Assembly: GCA_016194335.1 (NCBI GenBank)
Contig: JACQBR010000008.1
Span: 864 to 64,863 of the forward strand
Length of the DNA stretch: 64,000 nt
Direction of reading: 5' to 3'
DNA from: Candidatus Micrarchaeota archaeon
GTDB lineage: Archaea > Micrarchaeota > Micrarchaeia > Norongarragalinales > UBA97
The notes under the pieces are model-generated. The model was given only the letters and a program-made list of their open reading frames with translations, did not search any database and was not told where the DNA came from. Positions 2,985-11,340 of this stretch are shown here, piece by piece. A program made the position numbers and the translations under genes. How positions within the stretch are numbered: position 1 is the stretch's first letter; each line of letters starts with the position of its first letter.

Positions 2985-3680
2985 TTGCGCATGTCTGTCC
3001 AACCAGTGAAGAAAGGCGATTTTGTCGAGCTTTCGTTCGAGGGGAGGCTCGCATCCGGCGGGGAGGTTTTCGAGAAGGCCCAGAGGCCAATCCTCGCGAT
3101 CGTGGGCGAAGGGCAGCTCGTGCCCGGCCTCGACTCGGCCTTGGTCGGCGCAATGCCGGGAGAGGAGAAGTCGGTTGAGATTGACGACCCGGCAATGGCG
3201 TTCGGCGTGAGGACGGAGGAGCTCGTGCGCCTCGTTCCCGCCGAGCAGTTCACCAAGCAGGGAGTCACCCCGGTTGCCGGAATGCAGGTGGAGCTTGACG
3301 GCGCGACGGCAAGAATCCAGTCGGTGAGCGGCGGCCGCGTGAGGGTTGACTTCAACCACCCCCTTGCAGGGAAGAAAATCGCCTACAGCTTCAAGGTCGA
3401 GAAGTCATTCCTCACTCCCGAGGAGAAGGTTTCCGCACTTGCCAAAAACTTCCTTTCCGGCTCGCCCGCAAAATTCGAGGCGGGCGTGGCGGCCGCAACG
3501 GCTGGCGAGGGGGTGCGCAAGGACGCGGAATACACCATTGGGAAAATGAGGTTCGTCAGCCTCGCGCTCAAGTTCGTGCCCGAAGTCAAACGCGTCACCG
3601 TGCTCGAGGAGTATGCAGCGACGGAAGGGAAGGCCGCGACGGAAGGGATGGCAGCAGCGGAAGGGACGCCCGGGCAGTAG
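2985..3680 (+). CDS. FKBP-type peptidyl-prolyl cis-trans isomerase, long archaeal type with an IF/chaperone insert
   Basis: VKKGDFVELSFEGRL...GEVFE, VPGLDSALVGM..GEEK, RVDFNHPLAGK. These are canonical FKBP/SlyD-family motifs. Confidence 0.85.
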   Translation: MRMSVQPVKKGDFVELSFEGRLASGGEVFEKAQRPILAIVGEGQLVPGLDSALVGAMPGEEKSVEIDDPAMAFGVRTEELVRLVPAEQFTKQGVTPVAGMQVELDGATARIQSVSGGRVRVDFNHPLAGKKIAYSFKVEKSFLTPEEKVSALAKNFLSGSPAKFEAGVAAATAGEGVRKDAEYTIGKMRFVSLALKFVPEVKRVTVLEEYAATEGKAATEGMAAAEGTPGQ

Positions 3681-3869
3681 GCCGCTTGCACGCCCCGCCG
3701 CTTTTGGGGGGATGAAGCGCCCTCCGGATGGGGGGGCAGTGAACCATTTAAATACTTTTGCGGATTCAATACTTTCGCAATCCACCTTGGCTTATTCGAG
3801 CCGTCAGCTTTTTTGGGGGTTCGAATTGTTTTCCATTCCTTAACGACTTTTTGCGGAGTTGATTTTTCC

Positions 3870-4791: not shown

Positions 4792-7700
4792 ATGGTTAAC
4801 GACGTAAAGGATTTGGAAGAGCTTGTGAATTCCGTCTTGCCCCCCCAGTGCGAGCTTTCAAAAATAGAGCTCGAAGGCCCCCAGGTTGTGCTTTACCTCA
4901 AGAACATGCACGCGTTCTACGCCGACGTTAACCTCATCACGCGAATCGCTTCGAAAGTCCGCAAGAAGGTGCTCGTTCGTTCCGATTCCTCCATCCTAAT
5001 GCCTCCCGAAAGGGCGAAGGAAAAGGTCGCCGGCCTCATTCCCCCCGAGGCGGGAGTGAAGGAAATCCGTTTCGACCCGCATTTCAACGAGGTGCTCATC
5101 GAGGCCGCAAAGCCCGGGGTGGTAATCGGCAAGGGCGGAAGCGTGCTGAAAAGCATCACGCTCACCACCGGATGGTCCCCCCGCGTGCTCCGCGCGCCCA
5201 CGATGCCTTCCGAAATTGAGACTGCAATCCGAAACGCACTGCTTGCGGGCTCGGAGCAAAGGAAGAAATTCCTAGGGGTTTTTGGCAAGAGGATGCTGGG
5301 CGCCCCGGCCGCAACCGAGTGGGTGAAGATGACCGCGCTGGGAGGCTTTCGCGAAGTGGGCCGCAGCTGCTTTCTTTTGCAGACCCCGAAGAGCAACGTG
5401 ATTGTCGACTGCGGGCTCAACATCGACACCAGCGACGCCACGCGCGCCTATCCCTATCTCAACGCAATGGGGCTTTCGCTTGAGCAGATTGACGCGGTCA
5501 TCCTTTCGCACGCGCACCTCGACCACTGCCTCCATCCGGATTCCCTCATCCAGCTTGCAAACGGCGAAATAAGCAGCATTGAAGATTTGGCAGAACACGG
5601 CGGGGACGTCGTTTCTTACGATTTCGTTTCCGGCGCAACTGCAGGCGCTGTTGCAAGCAAGGGCGCTACTCAAAAGCCGGAAATGCTCAGGATCAAGACC
5701 AATTTATTCAGCATCCGCGCCACGCCAGAACACCGCTTTTTCGTCGTCAACGGCCTTGACGTGAGGGAAAAGCGCGCGGGAGAGCTGCGCGAGGGCGATT
5801 TCGTGGCGGCGCTGCGTTCAAGCAAATTCGAGGGAGCGGCAAACCAGCCTCTGCCCTTGGTGAAAGTGCAGGAGCTCGCTTTCATTTCGGGGGAAGGCAG
5901 GCTGAAAATGCGCCAAACGCGCGAGTCGTTCAAGCTGACCCGCAAGCAGGTTGCAGCAATTGCCGGAGTGCCGGCATGCCAATACGCATGGCTCGAATCG
6001 GGCAGGCACAAGCCGTCGAGGGAAAATTTGCAGAAATGCCTGCAGGCGCTGGGCCTGAAAACTCAGGATTTTGGGAATGAGGTTTCTGCAATCAAGTCGG
6101 CCGAGTTGCCCAAATTTTCAAGTGAGGAGTTCTGCCAGTTTTTGGGCTACGTCCTCGGCGACGGGAACGCGCACTATCAGGCGCACGATGCCAATTGCAA
6201 TGATTTGGCCGTGACGGACAAGGACGTGGCGAACCTCGAGTTTTACGCCCAGCTTGCAGAAAGGGTGTTCAATACAAAGCCGCGCTTTTCGCTCAAGGCG
6301 GGAACAAATGGCGGGAGAAACCGGGTGTTCTTCTCGTCCTACGTGACGAAGCTGATGTTCGCCTTGGACAAAGGGATTATTTGCCGCAGCCGCCAGCGCC
6401 GCGTACCCAAAATGATTCAGCGTGCGTCCAACGCCGAACTGGCCGCTTTCTTCCGCGGGCTTTTTGACGCCGAGGGGTCCGTGGGCCACCACTCGGTGAG
6501 GCTGGTCTCTTCAAGCGAGATGCTCTTGCGCGTGGCGCAGATGCTTCTATTGAGGCTGGGCGTGCAAAGCTGCATTGAAGAGCGCAAGGCGGTTTCGCAA
6601 AAAGCATTCTCCAAAGAGCCGTTCTACTGCCTTGCCATCACCCATCCCCGGTCGCTTTACGCATTCGGGGAGAAGATAGGCTTCTCATCAGAGGCGAAAT
6701 TGCAGAAATTCAAGGCGATGGCCGCCACCGTAGGCAATGCGCGCTCCGGAAAGGTTGACCTAATACCGATTGACGGTGCGGCGCTTAGGGCCGAATTGGC
6801 GGATGCGGGGTTGTTCGAAACCGATTTCGACTCCAGAATCTCCCGTTACTGGAACTGGAGCCACGCGCCGAGCAGGGAGGCAGTTGATGGAATCTGCGCG
6901 GGAATCGAAGCGCGTTTGCAGCTGCTGAAGACGGCTTCATCGCGGCAGGAGCTGCGAATAACGCAAGGGCAGGTCGGAAAGGCTTTGGGAGTGGACCAGT
7001 CGGTAGTTTCGGCAATCGAGCGCGGCAGAATCTCTTCGTGCAGCATTATCTACCGTGAGACGCAGGAGTTTTTGCACCTCTCCAGAGAAACCTGCATTTC
7101 AAAAGCGGAGCAACTTCTTCTCAAGTTGCGGATGCTCGTCTCGCAGGAGCTTGCGTGGGTGAAAATCAAGTCGATTGAAAATGAAACCCCGCCGGAGAAG
7201 GTTTACGACCTGAGCGTCCCCGGTTACGAGAACTTCGTTGCGGACGGTTTTGTCGTGCACAACTCCGGTTTCATCCCCTACCTCTACGCCTACGGCTACG
7301 AAGGCCCGGTCTACTGCACGCCCCCCACGCGGGACATGATGGTGCTTCTCCAGCAGGACTGCGTGAACGTGATGAATAGCGAGGGCGGCAAGGCCCCTTA
7401 CGGCGAGAGGGACATCAAGAAGGAGCTCATGCACGTGATCACCCGCGAGTACGGAGAGGTGACCGACGTGACGAGCGACATCCGCTTCACCTTCCACAAC
7501 GCGGGGCACATGATTGGAAGTTCCATCGTGCACATCCACATCGGCGAGGGCATGCACAACCTCATCTACTCCGGCGACATCAAGTTCGGCCGCACGAAAC
7601 TCTGCGACACCGCATCTACGCAATTCCCCCGCGCCGAGACGCTGATGATAGAGGCGACTTACGGCGGGCGCAACGACATCAAGCCGCGAATCGAGGATTG

Positions 7701-8424
7701 CGACGCGAAGCTCTCCGAAATCATCCGCACCGCAACCGGCCGCAGAGGCAAGGTCCTCATTCCCGTCCTCGCCTCTGGCCGCGCGCAGGAGCTGATGCTC
7801 ACGCTTGAGGAGCAGTTTTCCAACCCCGACTTCACCGTCTATATGGACGGCATGAGCCGCGAGGCAAGCGCAATCCACACTGTATATCCGGAATACCTGC
7901 GCCGCAACATCCAGCGCCGCATCCTGCAGAACGACTCGCCTTTCGACAAGCCGATGTTCAAGAACATACAGAACAACGACCACCGCAAGGCCATTGCCGA
8001 GTCGGACGAGCCCGCTGTGATTCTCGCGCCAAGCGGGATGCTCACCGGGGGGCCCAGTGTCGAGTTCCTCAAGCTGCTTGCCGACGACGCGCGCAATTCC
8101 CTCGTATTCGTGAGCTACCAGGGCGCACTCACGCTGGGCCGCAGGCTCCAGCAGGGGGAGAGGGAAGTGCCGGTGCTCAACCGCGCGAACAAGCAGGACT
8201 CGCTGAAGATTAACATGGCCGTGCAGAGCATCGAAGGCTACTCCGGCCACTCCGACCGCTCACAGCTCGTCGCGTGGACGCGCAACATCCGCCCCAAGCC
8301 CTCGCGCATCTTCACAATGCACGGCGAGGAAGGAAAGTGCGAGGAGCTCGTGCGCACGCTGGGCAAGATGCTCCACGTCCAGACGCAGGTGCCGATGAAC
8401 CTCGACAGCATCAGGCTGAAGTAG
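4792..8424 (+). CDS. aCPSF1/FttA (KH plus metallo-beta-lactamase plus beta-CASP ribonuclease), interrupted by a 579-aa intein
   Basis: N-terminal KH domains. MBL motif HAHLDH is followed directly by Cys. The extein resumes SGFIPYLYAYGYEGPVYC... The extein is 631 aa, a typical aCPSF1 length. Confidence 0.9.
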   Translation: MVNDVKDLEELVNSVLPPQCELSKIELEGPQVVLYLKNMHAFYADVNLITRIASKVRKKVLVRSDSSILMPPERAKEKVAGLIPPEAGVKEIRFDPHFNEVLIEAAKPGVVIGKGGSVLKSITLTTGWSPRVLRAPTMPSEIETAIRNALLAGSEQRKKFLGVFGKRMLGAPAATEWVKMTALGGFREVGRSCFLLQTPKSNVIVDCGLNIDTSDATRAYPYLNAMGLSLEQIDAVILSHAHLDHCLHPDSLIQLANGEISSIEDLAEHGGDVVSYDFVSGATAGAVASKGATQKPEMLRIKTNLFSIRATPEHRFFVVNGLDVREKRAGELREGDFVAALRSSKFEGAANQPLPLVKVQELAFISGEGRLKMRQTRESFKLTRKQVAAIAGVPACQYAWLESGRHKPSRENLQKCLQALGLKTQDFGNEVSAIKSAELPKFSSEEFCQFLGYVLGDGNAHYQAHDANCNDLAVTDKDVANLEFYAQLAERVFNTKPRFSLKAGTNGGRNRVFFSSYVTKLMFALDKGIICRSRQRRVPKMIQRASNAELAAFFRGLFDAEGSVGHHSVRLVSSSEMLLRVAQMLLLRLGVQSCIEERKAVSQKAFSKEPFYCLAITHPRSLYAFGEKIGFSSEAKLQKFKAMAATVGNARSGKVDLIPIDGAALRAELADAGLFETDFDSRISRYWNWSHAPSREAVDGICAGIEARLQLLKTASSRQELRITQGQVGKALGVDQSVVSAIERGRISSCSIIYRETQEFLHLSRETCISKAEQLLLKLRMLVSQELAWVKIKSIENETPPEKVYDLSVPGYENFVADGFVVHNSGFIPYLYAYGYEGPVYCTPPTRDMMVLLQQDCVNVMNSEGGKAPYGERDIKKELMHVITREYGEVTDVTSDIRFTFHNAGHMIGSSIVHIHIGEGMHNLIYSGDIKFGRTKLCDTASTQFPRAETLMIEATYGGRNDIKPRIEDCDAKLSEIIRTATGRRGKVLIPVLASGRAQELMLTLEEQFSNPDFTVYMDGMSREASAIHTVYPEYLRRNIQRRILQNDSPFDKPMFKNIQNNDHRKAIAESDEPAVILAPSGMLTGGPSVEFLKLLADDARNSLVFVSYQGALTLGRRLQQGEREVPVLNRANKQDSLKINMAVQSIEGYSGHSDRSQLVAWTRNIRPKPSRIFTMHGEEGKCEELVRTLGKMLHVQTQVPMNLDSIRLK
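5527..7263 (+). mobile_element. Intein (579 aa) with a LAGLIDADG homing endonuclease and an HTH domain, inserted in the aCPSF1 MBL motif HAHLDH|SG
   Basis: Begins with Cys (CLHPDSL), ends with ..VVHN and the +1 residue is Ser. Internal LAGLIDADG blocks FLGYVLGDGNAHY and FFRGLFDAEGSV. HTH segment LTRKQVAAIAGVP. Confidence 0.85.
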
Positions 8425-8429
8425 TTAAC

Positions 8430-8843
8430 TCAAACAATCGTGATGTCGCTGAACTTTTCGAAATCCCGGTCAGCCGTGACGATGCGGTTTATTCCTGCGC
8501 GTATGAGTGTGAGGTAGATGACGCAGTCGGTGTATTTCACGCCCAACCTGTCGCATAGAATCAGGGCGTCTTGGAAAATGTCGGCCGGTTCCGCCACCAC
8601 CCTGTTTTTCTCTTCCTCGTAGAGCTTGCTTATGACCTTGGCGCAAACCGCACGATTGTACCGGCGGTGGAGGATGTTTGCAAGCTCGACAATCACGGTA
8701 GTTGGAATTGCGACCGTAGCTTCGGCATAGGCTTTGTCGAGTTTTGACGCCGTCTTTTCGGCAATCCTTCTCTCTTCAGGAGTAAACCGTGAAGGGTCGC
8801 TCACATAGTAATAGAGTGCGCTAGTGTCTACTCCAATTTCCAA
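8430..8843 (-). CDS. vapC: PIN-domain toxin VapC
   Basis: PIN-like acidic residues in a roughly 135-aa protein. It overlaps the upstream antitoxin gene by 16 nt. Confidence 0.7.
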   Translation of the reverse strand: MEIGVDTSALYYYVSDPSRFTPEERRIAEKTASKLDKAYAEATVAIPTTVIVELANILHRRYNRAVCAKVISKLYEEEKNRVVAEPADIFQDALILCDRLGVKYTDCVIYLTLIRAGINRIVTADRDFEKFSDITIV

Positions 8844-9127
8844 TCGGCAGCACCTTCCGCCCTGAGAGTATCCAAATCGGCTCCGGGTTTTGCCGGGAGC
8901 GCCCCCCTCAATTTTCGGAAAGCCCCGGCTTTCTTTTCCTTGATGACGATTTCATTCTCAAACTTGAAGAGGACTAGGCGTTTGGACATCCCCTTACGCC
9001 ACGTTGCCGGAAGAACAATCCTGCCGGTGCCGTCAATCTCCCGGTATGCAACATCGATGTTTGCCATTTCAATCACGGTTCTGCCATAAGGATTAAGAAT
9101 ATGGCAGGTTATATTGCTTTCTGCCAA
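8828..9127 (-). CDS. vapB: AbrB/SpoVT-type antitoxin VapB
   Basis: GRIVLP swapped-hairpin motif. Small protein immediately upstream of and overlapping the PIN gene. Confidence 0.65.
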   Translation of the reverse strand: MAESNITCHILNPYGRTVIEMANIDVAYREIDGTGRIVLPATWRKGMSKRLVLFKFENEIVIKEKKAGAFRKLRGALPAKPGADLDTLRAEGAADWKLE

Positions 9128-9144: not shown

Positions 9145-9780
9145 ATGAGAATCGGAATCACGGGAACGCCGTGCACGGGAAAGACCACGCTGGCCAAGGC
9201 GCTTGCGAAAAAATTGCGGGCAAAGTGCGTGAGTGCCAGCGACGTGGTGATGCGGAAGAAAGCGATTGAGAAGATTGAGGGCAGCGGCGAAATCGTTGCG
9301 GATTTGAGGAAACTCAAAAAAGAATTGGAGAAAATAATCGAAAAAAGCAAGAAGGTCGTCGTTGAGGGGCACCTGATTTGCGAGTTTTCCCTTCCCCTTG
9401 ACGTCCTGGTAATCCTGAGGGCGAACCCCCTTGTGCTTGAGAGGAGGATGAGGGCGAGGCGTTATGCGCAGGATAAGATTGACGAAAACCTTCTCGCGGA
9501 AATCATCGACTATTGCCTGATCAATTCGGAGCAGAATTACGCGGGCAGGCTCAAGGCCAAAAAGACCGCAATTCTGCAGGTGGACGCGAGCGGTGGAGGG
9601 GCGGCGAAGGTTTCATCCCAGTTGGTGGCGAGGTTCTCTCCATTCCCCCCTAAGCGCGGCGGCTCGAAAGGGAAGGCTGGCGGAGCGCTTAAAAACATTG
9701 TGCCCCCTAAGGAGAAGGGTATAGACTGGAGCAGGATGCTGCTGGAAGGGCAATTCTCTCGTTTGGCCCGCAGCAAATAA
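9145..9780 (+). CDS. P-loop kinase, Fap7/adenylate-kinase-6-like
   Basis: MRIGITGTPCTGKTTLAKALA is a Walker A motif. Size and layout resemble archaeal Fap7/AK6. It carries a C-terminal Gly/Lys-rich extension. Confidence 0.55.
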   Translation: MRIGITGTPCTGKTTLAKALAKKLRAKCVSASDVVMRKKAIEKIEGSGEIVADLRKLKKELEKIIEKSKKVVVEGHLICEFSLPLDVLVILRANPLVLERRMRARRYAQDKIDENLLAEIIDYCLINSEQNYAGRLKAKKTAILQVDASGGGAAKVSSQLVARFSPFPPKRGGSKGKAGGALKNIVPPKEKGIDWSRMLLEGQFSRLARSK

Positions 9781-9858
9781 TCCCGGCCCGCTTACAAAGG
9801 CTTATAAACGCGTTATGGTAATTATGTTGGCTTTAGGCCATTAGAGGTGCAAGCGATT

Positions 9859-9999
9859 ATGGAGATTGATTCGGTCCGCAAGGTCCAGCCCGTCTTCAAG
9901 CTCGGCGACGACGGTGATGACGACGAGTGGGAGGACGAGGACGACTGGGACGAGGACGAGGACTGGGAAGACGACGAGAGTTCGGAAGAAGGCGACTAA
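9859..9999 (+). CDS. Small (46 aa), extremely acidic DE/W-rich protein
   Basis: ATG is preceded by a TATA-like cttataaa about 50 nt upstream. MEIDSVRKVQPVFKLGDDGDDDEWEDEDDWDEDEDWEDDESSEEGD. Below the 60-aa ORF-track cutoff. Confidence 0.4.
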   Translation: MEIDSVRKVQPVFKLGDDGDDDEWEDEDDWDEDEDWEDDESSEEGD

Positions 10000-10122
10000 A
10001 CTCCTTCCCTTCCCAACCCGGTTTTTCCCAGGTTCTTCCCAAAGTTGCCCTCCTTTCCTCTTTAACCTTTTTTCCCCCATTTACCGCTTCTTTTATTTAC
10101 CGTCCATTCCCTAATCGCCTCC

Positions 10123-10644
10123 ATGAAAAAACTCCTTTCCCGCGCCCGTGGGCGGCTCAAAAAGCCGCTTGGAAGGCTGCTGGACAAAAGACAGGCAGCC
10201 GCGTTTTTGGAAAGTTGCAAAAAGCACAAGCCGTTCCTCGTCACTGTCGGCGACGCAACCACCGGCCTTGCGCTGGGGCGCGGGATTTCTCCCTCCGTCT
10301 CGGTTGTCGACCTCAAAATCGCGAGGGAGAAAGTCGAAGCCCACCACGTCAAGCAATTGCTTCTTGCCGGCGCGGTGCTGCTTGAGGCTAAAAATGCGCC
10401 GGGAACAATCTCGGTTGAATCGGAGAAGAAAATTGCAGAGGCAATAAAATTTTCAAGGAAGGGGAAGAAGGTAATCCTGCTCATTGACGGCGAGGAAGAC
10501 CTCCTAACCCTGCCCGCAATCGTTTCCGCGCCCGTTGGCGCGCTCGTGCTTTACGGCCAGCCGGGTGAGGGGCTGGTGGCGGTTGAAGTCACTGCGGGGA
10601 AGAAGGGGGAAATCCGTAAAATTCTCGGCACGGGATTCGGCTGA
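10123..10644 (+). CDS. DUF359/COG1909-like protein, possibly a GTP-dependent dephospho-CoA kinase
   Basis: Roughly 170 aa with a basic N-terminus, PFLVTVGDATT and LIDGEEDLLTLPA blocks. The family assignment is from memory, not verified. Confidence 0.35.
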   Translation: MKKLLSRARGRLKKPLGRLLDKRQAAAFLESCKKHKPFLVTVGDATTGLALGRGISPSVSVVDLKIAREKVEAHHVKQLLLAGAVLLEAKNAPGTISVESEKKIAEAIKFSRKGKKVILLIDGEEDLLTLPAIVSAPVGALVLYGQPGEGLVAVEVTAGKKGEIRKILGTGFG

Positions 10645-11340
10645 TTACCGCCTGCCCTTTCCCTTCTGCGCCTTTTCCATCTCGCCTGCCATCTGCAGGG
10701 TGATTACGTCGGTGGGAATGGCGTCCTCCTTCTTGAGGCCGAGCTTGGCAACCAGCTCGTAGGCGCGCTTTTCGCTCCTTTCCCGTTGGTGGACGAAGTT
10801 CGTTGCCGGAAGCGCAACTTCGAGAAAATCGCCGAACTCTTCGATGGAGAAGGCTGCGAGCGGGATTTCAAGCGAGGCGAAGCGCCAGACGGTGTATTCG
10901 CGGGCAAGCGCCTCTTCGTAGCCGAGTTCCTGGAGGTCTTCCATCATCTTGTACGCGCTTGTCACTTCAAGGCCCAGCTTTTCCTCCTCTTGCACCATGT
11001 ACGTCTCCGCAACGACGGTCTCCTCTTCGGTCTTCCTGTCCGTGCGCACGAGAAGGTAGGAGAACACGCCTTCGCCGAACTGCTTGGCGTGCACCACTTC
11101 GGAATACTCCCCGCCCCCGAGGAACTTGGCGTGCACTTTCTTCTCAAGGAGCCCCACCGTCTCTTCCGCGTCTTGCAGCGGGAAGGAAAGCCTCGCTTCG
11201 GGAAGCTTCCACTTGAGCTTGTGCTCCTTGCCCAAAGTTTTTTTCCTCACTCCCGCGAGCCTGTCAAGCGCGTTGAGGAGGGGGTTGGCGTCAATCATGT
11301 TCAAACATCTCTTGCAACAGGCGCACTTATGGCAAACCAA
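10645..11340 (-). CDS. CYTH-domain (triphosphate tunnel metalloenzyme) protein
   Basis: N-terminal HKLKWKL resembles ExExK. C-terminal ...FSIEEFGDFLEVAL matches the CYTH GxFxEIE motif. The true start may be the Met at 11298. Confidence 0.5.
   Translation of the reverse strand: MVCHKCACCKRCLNMIDANPLLNALDRLAGVRKKTLGKEHKLKWKLPEARLSFPLQDAEETVGLLEKKVHAKFLGGGEYSEVVHAKQFGEGVFSYLLVRTDRKTEEETVVAETYMVQEEEKLGLEVTSAYKMMEDLQELGYEEALAREYTVWRFASLEIPLAAFSIEEFGDFLEVALPATNFVHQRERSEKRAYELVAKLGLKKEDAIPTDVITLQMAGEMEKAQKGKGRR

Follow-up and report, generated by a model that had tools for sequence, protein, structure and literature searches.

A conserved hyper-acidic micro-protein with evenly spaced tryptophans, encoded beside a Fap7-type kinase gene in Micrarchaeota

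The micro-protein gene and its neighbours

The micro-protein gene lies at positions 9859..9999 (+ strand) of the window, by which we mean the whole 64-kb stretch of DNA that was analysed, and consists of 46 codons followed by TAA. The annotation of the Candidatus Micrarchaeota MAG lists its product under the name 'hypothetical protein HY995_01510'. Its translation, MEIDSVRKVQPVFKLGDDGDDDEWEDEDDWDEDEDWEDDESSEEGD, agrees exactly with the protein described in an earlier note on this DNA as 46 residues long, acidic and carrying three tryptophans among its last 30 residues. That note had also counted 27 Asp or Glu in these 30 residues, which is wrong: the recount gives 23, the rest being 3 Trp, 2 Gly and 2 Ser. 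Over its full length the micro-protein contains 25 Asp/Glu, and its net charge is -22. No other ORF of 20-120 aa in the six frames of the 64-kb window has at least 14 acidic residues in 20, and the string TGG(GAN)5TGG(GAN)5TGG occurs once in the window, versus 0.00 expected from 100 shuffles.

The protein can be divided into two parts. Residues 1-16 (MEIDSVRKVQPVFKLG; 9859..9906, + strand) form a variable N-terminal segment, in which alignment A3 reveals a loose Pro-hydrophobic-x-Lys/Arg-hydrophobic motif. Residues 17-46 (9907..9996, + strand) form a polyanionic core. The core tryptophans, residues 24, 30 and 36, are encoded at 9928-9930, 9946-9948 and 9964-9966, and the underlying DNA is made of an 18-nt tandem unit present in 3.3 copies (TRF period 18, 80% matches). 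AlphaFold returns a low-confidence coil with no secondary structure (mean pLDDT 54), and the micro-protein is predicted to be intrinsically disordered. Searches of Pfam, including DSS1/SEM1 (E<=10), PHROGs (E<=0.01), PADLOC (E<=1), NCBIfam and PDB profiles gave no match to the micro-protein, nor did Rfam give any to the micro-ORF DNA.

Upstream, at 9145..9780 (+ strand), lies the gene for a Fap7/AK6-type kinase of 211 aa (Pfam AAA_18, E=1.1e-17), for which the closest solved structure is P. abyssi Fap7 (4CVN/4CW7, E=1e-21). Downstream, at 10123..10644 (+ strand), lies a DUF359 or GTP-dependent dephospho-CoA-kinase-like gene (Pfam DUF359, E=2.7e-31), which scores 112 bits against NCBIfam NF041125, under that model's cut-off. 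The spacer between the micro-ORF and this gene is about 124 nt. On the other side of the kinase, a VapB/VapC pair occupies 8430..9127 (- strand). The kinase and the micro-ORF share a reading frame in the window, but two in-frame TAA codons separate them, and in one orthologous locus (L014) they lie in different frames; the micro-ORF is thus not an extension of the kinase by read-through or frameshifting.

Putative expression signals

A TATA-like box, CTTATAAA, putatively a promoter element, is found at 9801..9808 (+ strand), 51 nt 5' of the ATG, and is preceded by a purine-rich AAAGG. Comparable boxes (cTTTATAAA, gTTTAAAAAA, gTTTATATA, cTTAAAAAG) stand 45-70 nt upstream of the start in most of the nine orthologous loci described below, and nearer to it in L026 and L117. 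The suggestion that the gene has its own TATA-like promoter, with cttataaa about 50 nt upstream, is supported by the promoter-like boxes of these loci, and a ribosome-binding-like signal can be added to it. Indeed, a Shine-Dalgarno-like GAGGTG lies at 9844..9849 (+ strand), 9 nt 5' of the ATG, and GGTGA-type motifs precede the start by about 5-12 nt in all nine loci, in a weaker form (GTGGTA) in L051 and L119. An alternative GTG start at 9847 falls within the Shine-Dalgarno motif, and the ATG at 9859 is therefore the likely start. Past the stop codon, a pyrimidine-rich tract (10022..10073, + strand) with runs of T5 (10022-10026) and T6 (10068-10073) might act as an archaeal terminator of the oligo-T type. 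In L014, L026, L051, L117 and L119, too, the stop is succeeded by T-runs.

Synteny of the locus

Nine loci were compared: the window and L014, L023, L026, L051, L116, L117, L118 and L119. A Fap7-type kinase gene is immediately 5' of the micro-ORF in eight of them, that is, wherever the upstream gene is readable, the upstream ORF of L117 being interrupted by the contig end. This constitutes a genomic tie to the ribosome-assembly machinery. Four members of the family recovered by sequence alone are all directly 3' of the kinase. The DUF359 gene directly follows the micro-ORF in five of the nine loci (window, L023, L116, L117 and L118), its start being only 2 nt from the micro-ORF stop in L116. 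It is not the next gene in L014, where a gene of 169 aa without family match follows, nor in L051 and L119, where tRNA or other ORFs do; the L026 sequence ends too early to judge. A DUF359-based scan of genome contigs was uninformative, returning only distant archaeal and bacterial-labelled loci, without an acidic ORF.

The micro-ORF thus belongs to a conserved housekeeping array of FKBP, proteasome, aCPSF1, Fap7, micro-ORF and DUF359, with a proteasome beta-type gene two to three genes upstream. The earlier note had placed the gene between the Fap7-like kinase and DUF359, near VapBC. All these neighbours are where it put them, but the association with VapBC does not hold: the pair is missing from the orthologous loci L014, L116 and L118. 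It is therefore a lineage-specific insertion in the window, and its nearness to the micro-ORF is incidental. In none of the nine loci is the micro-ORF linked to a gene for SSB, a histone or Alba, and no obvious one appears in the 64-kb window on a gene map, which is not an annotation.

A family of relatives with a fixed core

When the 46-aa protein was used directly as the query of a sequence search, it retrieved itself and nothing else. Among true family members, pairwise HMMER scores are only 3-20 bits because of bias correction. Standard sequence search is blind to this micro-protein family, and synteny alone brought it out. The orthologous loci provided the micro-ORFs of L014 and L026, each of 35 aa, and those of L023 and L051, each of 36 aa; a profile search then gave 14 proteins, and an exhaustive scan of 1.84 billion representatives gave 14 proteins at E<=1e-3. 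In all, about 18 relatives were found by synteny and profile searches, all of them free-standing and 35-56 aa long. The hits of the profile search and the exhaustive scan taken together measure 36-64 aa (those of the scan 36-56 aa), and none is fused to another domain, OB fold included. Conservation of the reading frame in relatives, on which the earlier note had made its proposal depend, is thus clearly observed.

The family shares the core motif EWDDExDWDxxEEWDxE. In an alignment of 13 proteins, D29, W30, D31, E34 and W36 are invariant and W24, D26 and D37 nearly so. No indel interrupts the core in the aligned members, and in each of the 17 members with two or more tryptophans, these are spaced by exactly 6. 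The N-termini differ (IPIPHFSF, LPFFKLS, IPYLRVA, LPFQRLVF, with poly-Lys in two members), and the net charge of most members is between -19 and -23.

Selection and origin

Summed codon-position entropies are 1.77, 1.27 and 19.0 for positions 1, 2 and 3, respectively; variation is almost all at third positions, where it is partly Asp/Glu exchange and not all synonymous. The acidic class is retained at 88-100% of core positions. This is a real, conserved and clade-restricted gene under purifying selection, with a product that is predicted to be disordered. In an NJ tree (a rough one, without support values), the kinases that accompany a micro-ORF group into a single clade, from which micro-less kinases are absent. 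This suggests a single origin of the micro-ORF in one Micrarchaeota clade, followed by its retention. The kinases of the lineages that conserve the core share only 36-48% identity.

We also asked whether kinases bearing a micro-ORF stand out by their C-terminal extension or their charge. When relatedness is controlled, neither the length and charge of the C-terminal tail nor the charge of the whole protein sets them apart from their nearest micro-less relatives (Mann-Whitney p=0.64). The kinases of the L051 and L119 lineages are acidic.

Resemblance to known acidic proteins and tails

Several known systems combine acidity with spaced aromatic residues or use acidic side chains in place of nucleic acid. 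In gp2.5, the acidic tail and ssDNA compete for the OB fold, and the tail also touches partner proteins of the replisome (PMC10359462). Like tails of this type, the micro-protein is an Asp/Glu tract with aromatics, disordered by prediction, and the W-x5-W-x5-W layout is common to it and to the end of a viral gp2.5-like SSB (AWDDDEDWDDDEDWEDDD in L113; phrog_112, 3e-55). A viral dUTPase also has the same Trp hexad as its C-terminal tail. The likeness to bacterial SSB tails is looser than that to the phage T7 gp2.5-type tail. In contrast to the latter, the micro-protein is free-standing, not attached to an OB fold, and is encoded on an archaeal chromosome beside Fap7. The resemblance may be one of convergent low complexity, for which homology is not demonstrable.

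DSS1 is described as a small acidic multifunctional protein that binds several complexes, including BRCA2 and RPA (PMC6218214, PMC7641332). DSS1/Sem1 (PF05160) and the micro-protein have in common that they are free-standing, small, acidic and disordered (by prediction for the micro-protein), with a conserved Trp. The micro-protein differs in being half the size, in its strict Trp hexad, in having no C-terminal helix and in being confined to one archaeal clade. A third likeness is to the acidic regions of histone chaperones (APLF, YL1, Spt16, Nap1), which are disordered peptides with spaced aromatic anchors; the acidic domain of APLF relies on Tyr/Trp anchors to mask the face by which H2A-H2B binds DNA (PMC6101569). 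In these large eukaryotic proteins, however, the anchors are 9-23 residues apart, whereas the tryptophans of the micro-protein are 6 apart.

The last comparison is with chaperones of ribosomal proteins that mimic RNA: Fap7, which serves uS11, and the escortin Tsr2, which serves eS26 (PMC4019466, PMC5148605). Fap7 substitutes Asp/Glu for the rRNA phosphate contacts on uS11 (PMC4019466). The mode that we propose for the micro-protein is similar, in that acidic side chains would replace rRNA phosphates on a basic ribosomal protein until assembly. Fap7 and Tsr2 are folded, unlike the micro-protein with its predicted disorder, whose putative link to ribosomal proteins comes from gene adjacency.

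A possible nucleic-acid mimic for a basic partner

The best explanation overall, to which we give about an even chance, is that the family consists of disordered polyanionic micro-proteins that mimic nucleic acid for a basic partner, a client of the Fap7/uS11 system being the leading candidate. The gene would have arisen once in a Micrarchaeota clade, in the interval that separates the Fap7 kinase from DUF359, and would have been retained by every sampled descendant. Transcribed and translated independently, it would produce a short variable hydrophobic/basic N-terminus followed by about 25 Asp/Glu and three Trp 6 residues apart. This product most likely acts as an "acidic tail in trans", the free-standing form of the tails carried by SSBs, DSS1 and the chaperones of histones and ribosomal proteins. 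Its carboxylates would stand for the phosphate backbone and its Trp side chains would serve as base-like anchors, so that the peptide could fill the nucleic-acid-binding surface of the partner and shield, escort or regulate it.

By analogy with the systems above, we infer mimicry as the mechanism. The earlier note had likened the peptide both to tails of nucleic-acid-binding-protein chaperones and to anti-restriction peptides; the first comparison is still the best guess, backed by the W-x5-W-x5-W tail of the gp2.5-like SSB, while the second is contradicted by the vertically inherited array and by the lack of any PHROG or PADLOC match. The invariant Trp register and the fixed choices between Asp and Glu, together with the absence of indels from the core, imply at the level of the alignment a defined binding interface, beyond mere charge. 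As to the client, a small-subunit ribosomal protein or assembly intermediate is put forward tentatively, because the gene has a fixed position behind that of Fap7, itself a chaperone of uS11 by RNA mimicry. In a compact DPANN genome, this adjacency may reflect only the birthplace of the gene and not its function. The array shared with Fap7 also contains unrelated genes (proteasome, aCPSF1, DUF359), and the charge and tail of the kinase do not vary with the presence of the micro-ORF, which likewise weighs against the proposal.

A more specific version of the proposal, which we consider possible though rather unlikely, is that the micro-protein is an RNA-mimic co-chaperone of the archaeal Fap7-uS11 module. 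This 'micro-escortin' of about 40 residues, with its Trp anchors and an Asp/Glu register copying the 16S rRNA backbone, would hold a basic small-subunit protein (the C-terminal extension of uS11 or a neighbour) until ATP hydrolysis by Fap7 passes the protein to pre-rRNA. If true, it would be the smallest dedicated ribosomal-protein chaperone known, and would illustrate how, in DPANN archaea, a GA-rich repeat lying between genes can give rise de novo to an assembly factor.

For a small, clade-restricted family, the wider impact is limited for now. Micro-proteins of less than 50 aa are nevertheless routinely overlooked or written off as low-complexity noise, and the present case indicates that a peptide of 36-46 residues, made almost purely of Asp, Glu and Trp, can stay under strict positional selection across deep divergence. 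It may also help to study how ribosomes are assembled in DPANN archaea that are uncultivated and genome-reduced. Since the peptide can be synthesised and has a built-in Trp fluorescence reporter, it is a tractable object for studying the acidic-aromatic disordered recognition of nucleic-acid-binding surfaces.

Alternative explanations

The micro-protein could be a generic polyanion without a specific partner, either a 'hero-like' poly-Asp/Glu anti-aggregation factor or a buffer of Mg2+, Ca2+ or polyamines. Its extreme charge and predicted disorder would suit such a role, as would the variability of the N-terminus. However, the identity of Asp versus Glu is invariant at D29, D31 and E34, and the 6-residue Trp spacing is kept without indel across kinases as divergent as those above, where drift in spacing and length would otherwise be expected. 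We therefore hold this explanation to be unlikely.

That the peptide is a trans-acting acidic tail for SSB/RPA, a histone or an Alba-type protein, unrelated to Fap7, appears unlikely as well. It fits the occurrence of the hexad at the C-terminus of two viral proteins, a gp2.5-like SSB and a dUTPase, and it has parallels in the acidic peptides with aromatic anchors that bind the DNA-binding faces of H2A-H2B (PMC6101569) and in DSS1, described as a small, acidic protein that partners BRCA2 and is found in association with RPA (PMC7641332, PMC6218214). Yet none of the nine loci contains a linked gene for such a partner, and the viral likeness is that of a low-complexity motif, perhaps convergent.

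A leader peptide or regulatory uORF, itself functionless, might control DUF359 through the availability of Asp-, Glu- or Trp-tRNA or through translational coupling. The micro-ORF is rich in few codon types and stands directly 5' of DUF359, in the same orientation, in five of the nine loci, with the 2-nt gap of L116. But it is kept in L014, L051 and L119, where DUF359 does not lie downstream, a TATA-like box of its own precedes it and T-runs succeed its stop, and DUF359 has no link to the metabolism of Asp, Glu or Trp. Moreover, the position-specific conservation of residues, N-terminal segment included, exceeds what codon content would explain. We regard this possibility as improbable.

An archaeal homologue or functional equivalent of DSS1/Sem1, tied to the proteasome gene nearby, is very improbable. 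It was suggested by a small acidic protein, predicted to be disordered, with a conserved Trp, encoded two to three genes from a proteasome beta-type gene. However, Pfam DSS1_SEM1 does not match at E<=10 (five members tested), hhalign against human DSS1 gives a probability of 1.2% over 5 columns, phmmer scores in the comparison with DSS1 are -2.3 and -4.6 bits (with DSS1 sequences entered by hand), and the PDB profile search contains no DSS1/Sem1 chain. On these nulls we reject homology with DSS1, and the family does not reach beyond a single Micrarchaeota clade. PCI-domain lid subunits, BRCA2 and TREX-2, the known partners of DSS1, are not known from DPANN archaea.

The idea that the peptide came from a mobile element, belongs with VapBC and mimics DNA to counter restriction or other defences is largely refuted by synteny and retains only a slight probability. 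The composition is indeed hyper-acidic, and small acidic W-rich ORFs and tails are present on viral contigs. Against it, the locus is core housekeeping DNA, kept as an array across deep divergence, the micro-ORF is monophyletic with the kinase, and VapBC is a lineage-specific insertion absent from three of the loci; nor is there a PHROGs, PADLOC or Pfam match. Ocr and ArdA are folded DNA mimics, of a class whose scaffolds display carboxylates in B-DNA geometry, unlike the micro-protein with its predicted disorder, although it might fold on binding.

Finally, the + strand ORF could be no gene at all, but a non-coding GA-rich repeat or the complement of an antisense ORF resembling a membrane peptide. 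GAN repeats leave the antisense frames open by composition, and the ORF list of the window does contain a Val/Leu/Phe-rich ORF of 79 aa, initiated by ATG, at 9841..10080 (- strand). This reading is barely credible: the frame, length and start of the antisense ORF vary among loci, the exact-antisense frame is devoid of any start codon in L014, L026, L117 and L119, and the invariant TGG would place a Pro every six residues inside a 'helix'; the comparison of frames and starts across loci rules the antisense ORF out. No Rfam family supports a non-coding repeat. The + strand alone conserves the promoter-like box, the Shine-Dalgarno motif, the start and the stop. What lies at 9859..9999 is a real gene, and neither low complexity nor antisense coding explains it away.

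The micro-ORF and its signals

Direct translation of the ORF at 9859..9999 (+) yields a 46-residue product, MEIDSVRKVQPVFKLGDDGDDDEWEDEDDWDEDEDWEDDESSEEGD, and both the coordinates and the translation agree exactly with the earlier note. The same product, annotated as hypothetical in a Candidatus Micrarchaeota MAG (HY995_01510), occurs on three more assemblies of the same population. On recount, the last 30 residues contain 23 Asp or Glu (27 had been claimed), together with the 3 Trp correctly reported, 2 Gly and 2 Ser; the whole micro-protein, with 25 Asp/Glu, carries a net charge of -22. The TATA-like cttataaa, said to lie about 50 nt upstream, is present at 9801-9808 (+), 51 nt before the ATG as read from the sequence. 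A Shine-Dalgarno-like GAGGTG is found at 9844-9849 (+), 9 nt before the ATG, and since the alternative GTG start at 9847 falls within this motif, the ATG at 9859 is the likely start. Runs of five and six T lie downstream of the stop.

A six-frame search of the 64-kb window for ORFs of 20-120 aa with at least 14 acidic residues in 20 returned the micro-ORF alone, and the back-translated pattern TGG(GAN)5TGG(GAN)5TGG is present once, with an expectation of 0.00 from shuffles. The micro-ORF is not a chance outcome of composition. Its core DNA is made of 3.3 copies of an 18-nt tandem unit.

Relatives of the micro-protein

A direct protein search with the 46-residue sequence returned the identical sequence alone. 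True relatives reach just 3-20 bits in pairwise HMMER comparisons after composition correction, which makes direct search blind to them. Synteny was therefore used: the encoding loci of kinase relatives (the closest in the databases being at most 48% identical to the window kinase) were looked up, and metagenome contigs were scanned with a kinase profile. This route led to four more lineages, each with a hyper-acidic, Trp-containing micro-ORF directly 3' of, and co-oriented with, the kinase: L014 (MNPYMFAEEEDDVDEDEEDWEDDEDLDEEGDVDEE), L026 (GTG start; YKHLLSVEEDGVEDEDDEDWEDEDDWEDDDVDEE), L023 (MKIPIPHFSFEESDDEWDDEEDWDDDEEWDDEDDGE) and L051 (MAGTKKKKTKKKLNFNAWEDDEDWDEEEEWDDEADF). A profile made from these four and the window micro-protein retrieved 14 database proteins of 36-64 aa, the weakest of which (P0071, 64 aa) is doubtful and was omitted from the later profile. 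Run exhaustively against 1.84 billion cluster representatives, the resulting 13-sequence profile matched 14 proteins at E<=0.001, all of 36-56 aa and none (0/14) fused to other domains. The family size is a lower bound, because gene callers often miss ORFs so short. Conservation in relatives had been the check proposed; the reading frame is indeed kept, in relatives reached by synteny and profile and not by direct search.

The micro-protein has no match in Pfam (DSS1_SEM1 included, E<=10), NCBIfam, PHROGs or PADLOC, and the sole weak match of a PDB profile search, an acetyltransferase, was treated as chance. No library searched holds a model of the family and literature searches found no paper on it; the family is undescribed. 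It offers a well-supported example of a conserved micro-protein invisible to standard homology search; the clade of uncultivated archaea to which it is confined is small, and its function is inferred.

Coding strand

By its composition, a GAN repeat leaves the antisense frames open, with Val/Leu/Phe as their translation, and the ORF map of the window carries a 79-aa antisense ORF at 9841..10080 (-). The earlier note had raised the possibility of an antisense or low-complexity artefact, against which the + strand signals and the codon pattern both speak. Across nine orthologous loci, the window included, the antisense ORFs differ in frame, length and start, and in 4 of the 9 the exact-antisense frame offers no start codon. 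On the + strand, the micro-ORF starts with ATG or GTG in 9/9, each time behind a Shine-Dalgarno-like motif, which is of the GGTGA type and 5-12 nt upstream in most loci and weaker (GTGGTA) in L051 and L119. A TATA-like box lies 45-70 nt upstream in most of the nine (the nearest box is closer to the start in L026 and L117), and several of the loci carry T-runs after the stop.

In the nine DNA sequences, the 16 core codons that align without gaps have a summed column entropy of 1.77, 1.27 and 19.0 bits at codon positions 1, 2 and 3, respectively; the acidic class is retained at 88-100% of core positions while nucleotide identity drops to 67-90%. Third-position change is partly Asp/Glu exchange and not strictly synonymous; this notwithstanding, the pattern in the aligned sequences is the one that purifying selection on the + frame would be expected to leave. 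Rfam has no family matching the region. Read-through out of the kinase is rejected: the window has two in-frame TAA codons, and in L014 the kinase and the micro-ORF are in different frames. We regard it as almost certain that the micro-ORF is a real gene under selection.

Synteny and origin

The reported position between a Fap7-like kinase and a DUF359 gene is borne out. The kinase (9145..9780, +) matches Pfam AAA_18, its best solved relative being Pyrococcus abyssi Fap7 (4CVN/4CW7, E=1e-21), and the DUF359 gene (10123..10644, +) relates to GTP-dependent dephospho-CoA kinase with a score under the NCBIfam cut-off. Four database proteins found by sequence alone (P0062, P0063, P0064 and P0068) all lie directly downstream of the kinase, as their context, checked afterwards, revealed; at L117 the contig ends within the upstream ORF, too early for it to be typed. 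L116 repeats the full window order: FKBP, proteasome, intein-containing aCPSF1, kinase, micro-ORF, DUF359 and a conserved, unannotated minus-strand gene. The window is core chromosome: by eye, from N-termini and not by formal annotation, it also appears to encode proteasome alpha, L37Ae, L10e, L15e, RNA polymerase, S7, EF-2, EF-1alpha and S10.

DUF359 comes next after the micro-ORF in the window, L023, L116, L117 and L118; in L014, L051 and L119 its place is taken by a 169-aa gene without family match, a tRNA (in L051 a tRNA-like gene seen by eye) or other ORFs. There is a small probability that the micro-ORF is a leader peptide for DUF359, as the gap of just 2 nt in L116 would suit, but it persists where DUF359 is not downstream, has promoter- and terminator-like signals of its own and is conserved at the residue level. 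The VapBC pair said to be nearby is present, VapC (PIN) and VapB (MazE/AbrB-like) lying at 8430..9127 (-) between aCPSF1 and the kinase; it is absent from the orthologous arrays L014, L116 and L118, and is therefore an insertion specific to the window lineage and unrelated to the micro-ORF.

Of the kinase loci that extend for at least 250 nt on the downstream side, just those nearest the window's kinase carry the micro-ORF. A neighbour-joining tree of kinase cores, rough and without support values, places 8/8 micro-ORF-bearing kinases in one clade with no locus lacking it inside, and the kinase has diverged to 36-48% identity across the lineages that retain it. The simplest reading is a single origin in the Fap7-DUF359 spacer, possibly via expansion of the 18-nt GA-rich unit, and retention in every sampled descendant.

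Several neighbouring features were noted. The window aCPSF1 (KH + beta-lactamase + beta-CASP; 4792..8424, +) owes its length of 1210 aa to an intein that includes an HTH domain as well as a LAGLIDADG homing endonuclease; the intein is also in the L116 orthologue (1176 aa) and absent from those of L014 and L017 (632 aa). The minus-strand gene after DUF359 (209-243 aa; window 10645..11340, L023:1524-2177, L116:5663-6316, L117:1066-1695, L118:5007-5738) recurs in L014 at 5309-5992 (-), in the same position after the 169-aa gene; Pfam and NCBIfam gave nothing for the window copy, and no Pfam hit is recorded for the others. In L026, a GC-rich insert of ~200 nt (3560-3740), which the sister locus L014 lacks, separates the kinase-proximal TATA box from the micro-ORF. 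It has no Rfam match, is probably structured and could be a small mobile element or non-coding RNA.

Family alignment and predicted structure

The first 8-35 residues vary, commonly with a loose Pro-hydrophobic-x-Lys/Arg-hydrophobic motif (QPVFKL, LPFFKL, IPYLRV, LPFQRLVF), and are followed by a conserved C-terminal core, approximately EWDDExDWDxxEEWDxE. In the 13 aligned sequences, D29, W30, D31, E34 and W36 (window numbering) are invariant and W24, D26 and D37 nearly so. The Trp-Trp spacing is exactly six residues in 17/17 members with at least two Trp, the core shows no indels in the family alignment, a missing Trp is replaced by Leu or Val at the hexad position (L014, L026), and the choice of Asp or Glu is fixed at several core positions. 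This positional constraint in the alignment argues for a defined interface, which it would favour over bulk charge. Orthologous hexads are more alike than paralogous ones (e.g. the "EE" before the third Trp), and the repeat is therefore old, without ongoing homogenisation. AlphaFold2 with the family alignment gave a mean pLDDT of 54 and no secondary structure, a prediction that fits an intrinsically disordered peptide.

Possible function

The exact hexad pattern had ten matches in 2.9 million viral contigs, mostly as the acidic C-terminal tail of larger proteins, such as a gp2.5-like ssDNA-binding protein (L113; phrog_112, E=3e-55), which ends in AWDDDEDWDDDEDWEDDD, and a dUTPase (L108). This suggests that the W-(D/E)5 hexad repeat is a widely reused acidic-aromatic module. 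Hexad tails were also seen on a protein (L111) with a possibly transmembrane run of hydrophobic residues and on larger proteins (L114, L115), and stand-alone small acidic hexad ORFs on L106 (about 87 aa) and L112 (about 63 aa).

In gp2.5, the acidic tail and ssDNA compete for the OB fold, and the tail also contacts partners (PMC10359462, citing Marintcheva et al. 2008). In APLF, Tyr/Trp "anchors" of an acidic disordered domain cover the DNA-binding face of H2A-H2B (PMC6101569), and DSS1, which is small, acidic and disordered, serves as an adaptor of BRCA2, RPA and further complexes (PMC6218214, PMC7641332); a profile-profile comparison of the family with human DSS1 gave a probability of 1.2%. 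Fap7, the invariant neighbour of the micro-ORF, is itself a chaperone of uS11 by RNA mimicry, its Asp/Glu replacing every salt bridge that rRNA phosphates make with the basic C-terminal extension of uS11 (PMC4019466), and it pre-assembles uS11 with eS26 (PMC5148605).

These analogies, with the viral tails, lead us to propose that the micro-protein acts as an "acidic tail in trans": its carboxylates would imitate backbone phosphates, the three evenly spaced Trp would serve as base-like anchors, and the peptide would sit on the surface with which a basic partner binds nucleic acid. Of the likenesses that the earlier note had claimed, a mimic- or chaperone-like tail is, by analogy, the best explanation; the anti-restriction or mobile-element reading is at odds with the vertical housekeeping synteny. 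We put at about even the chance that the micro-protein is a polyanionic, aromatic-anchored mimic that binds a basic surface. The family would be alike in kind to known acidic-aromatic disordered mimic peptides, and differs from them in being free-standing, archaeal, 35-56 aa long and of a strictly periodic Trp register. It is tractable experimentally as a synthetic peptide.

We think it unlikely that the client belongs to the Fap7/uS11 pathway, a small-subunit r-protein of which is weakly the leading candidate; adjacency to the kinase in a compact genome may simply record the gene's birthplace. One corollary, a difference in C-terminal extension or charge between kinases with and without the micro-ORF, gave no signal once relatedness was controlled. 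The window kinase is itself strongly basic (net +21, pI 10.1), with abundant Lys, Arg, Gly and Pro in a C-terminal extension of 80 residues, and many DPANN relatives are likewise basic, which is unexpected given that the characterised orthologue acts as an acidic RNA mimic. In two related lineages (L051:866-976 and L119:1624-1734) the micro-protein N-terminus is poly-Lys (KKKKTKKK) and not hydrophobic, and the adjacent kinase is acidic, with a pI of about 5 versus about 10 in other members; together with the lack of DUF359 there, this may be a covariation, amounting effectively to one evolutionary event.
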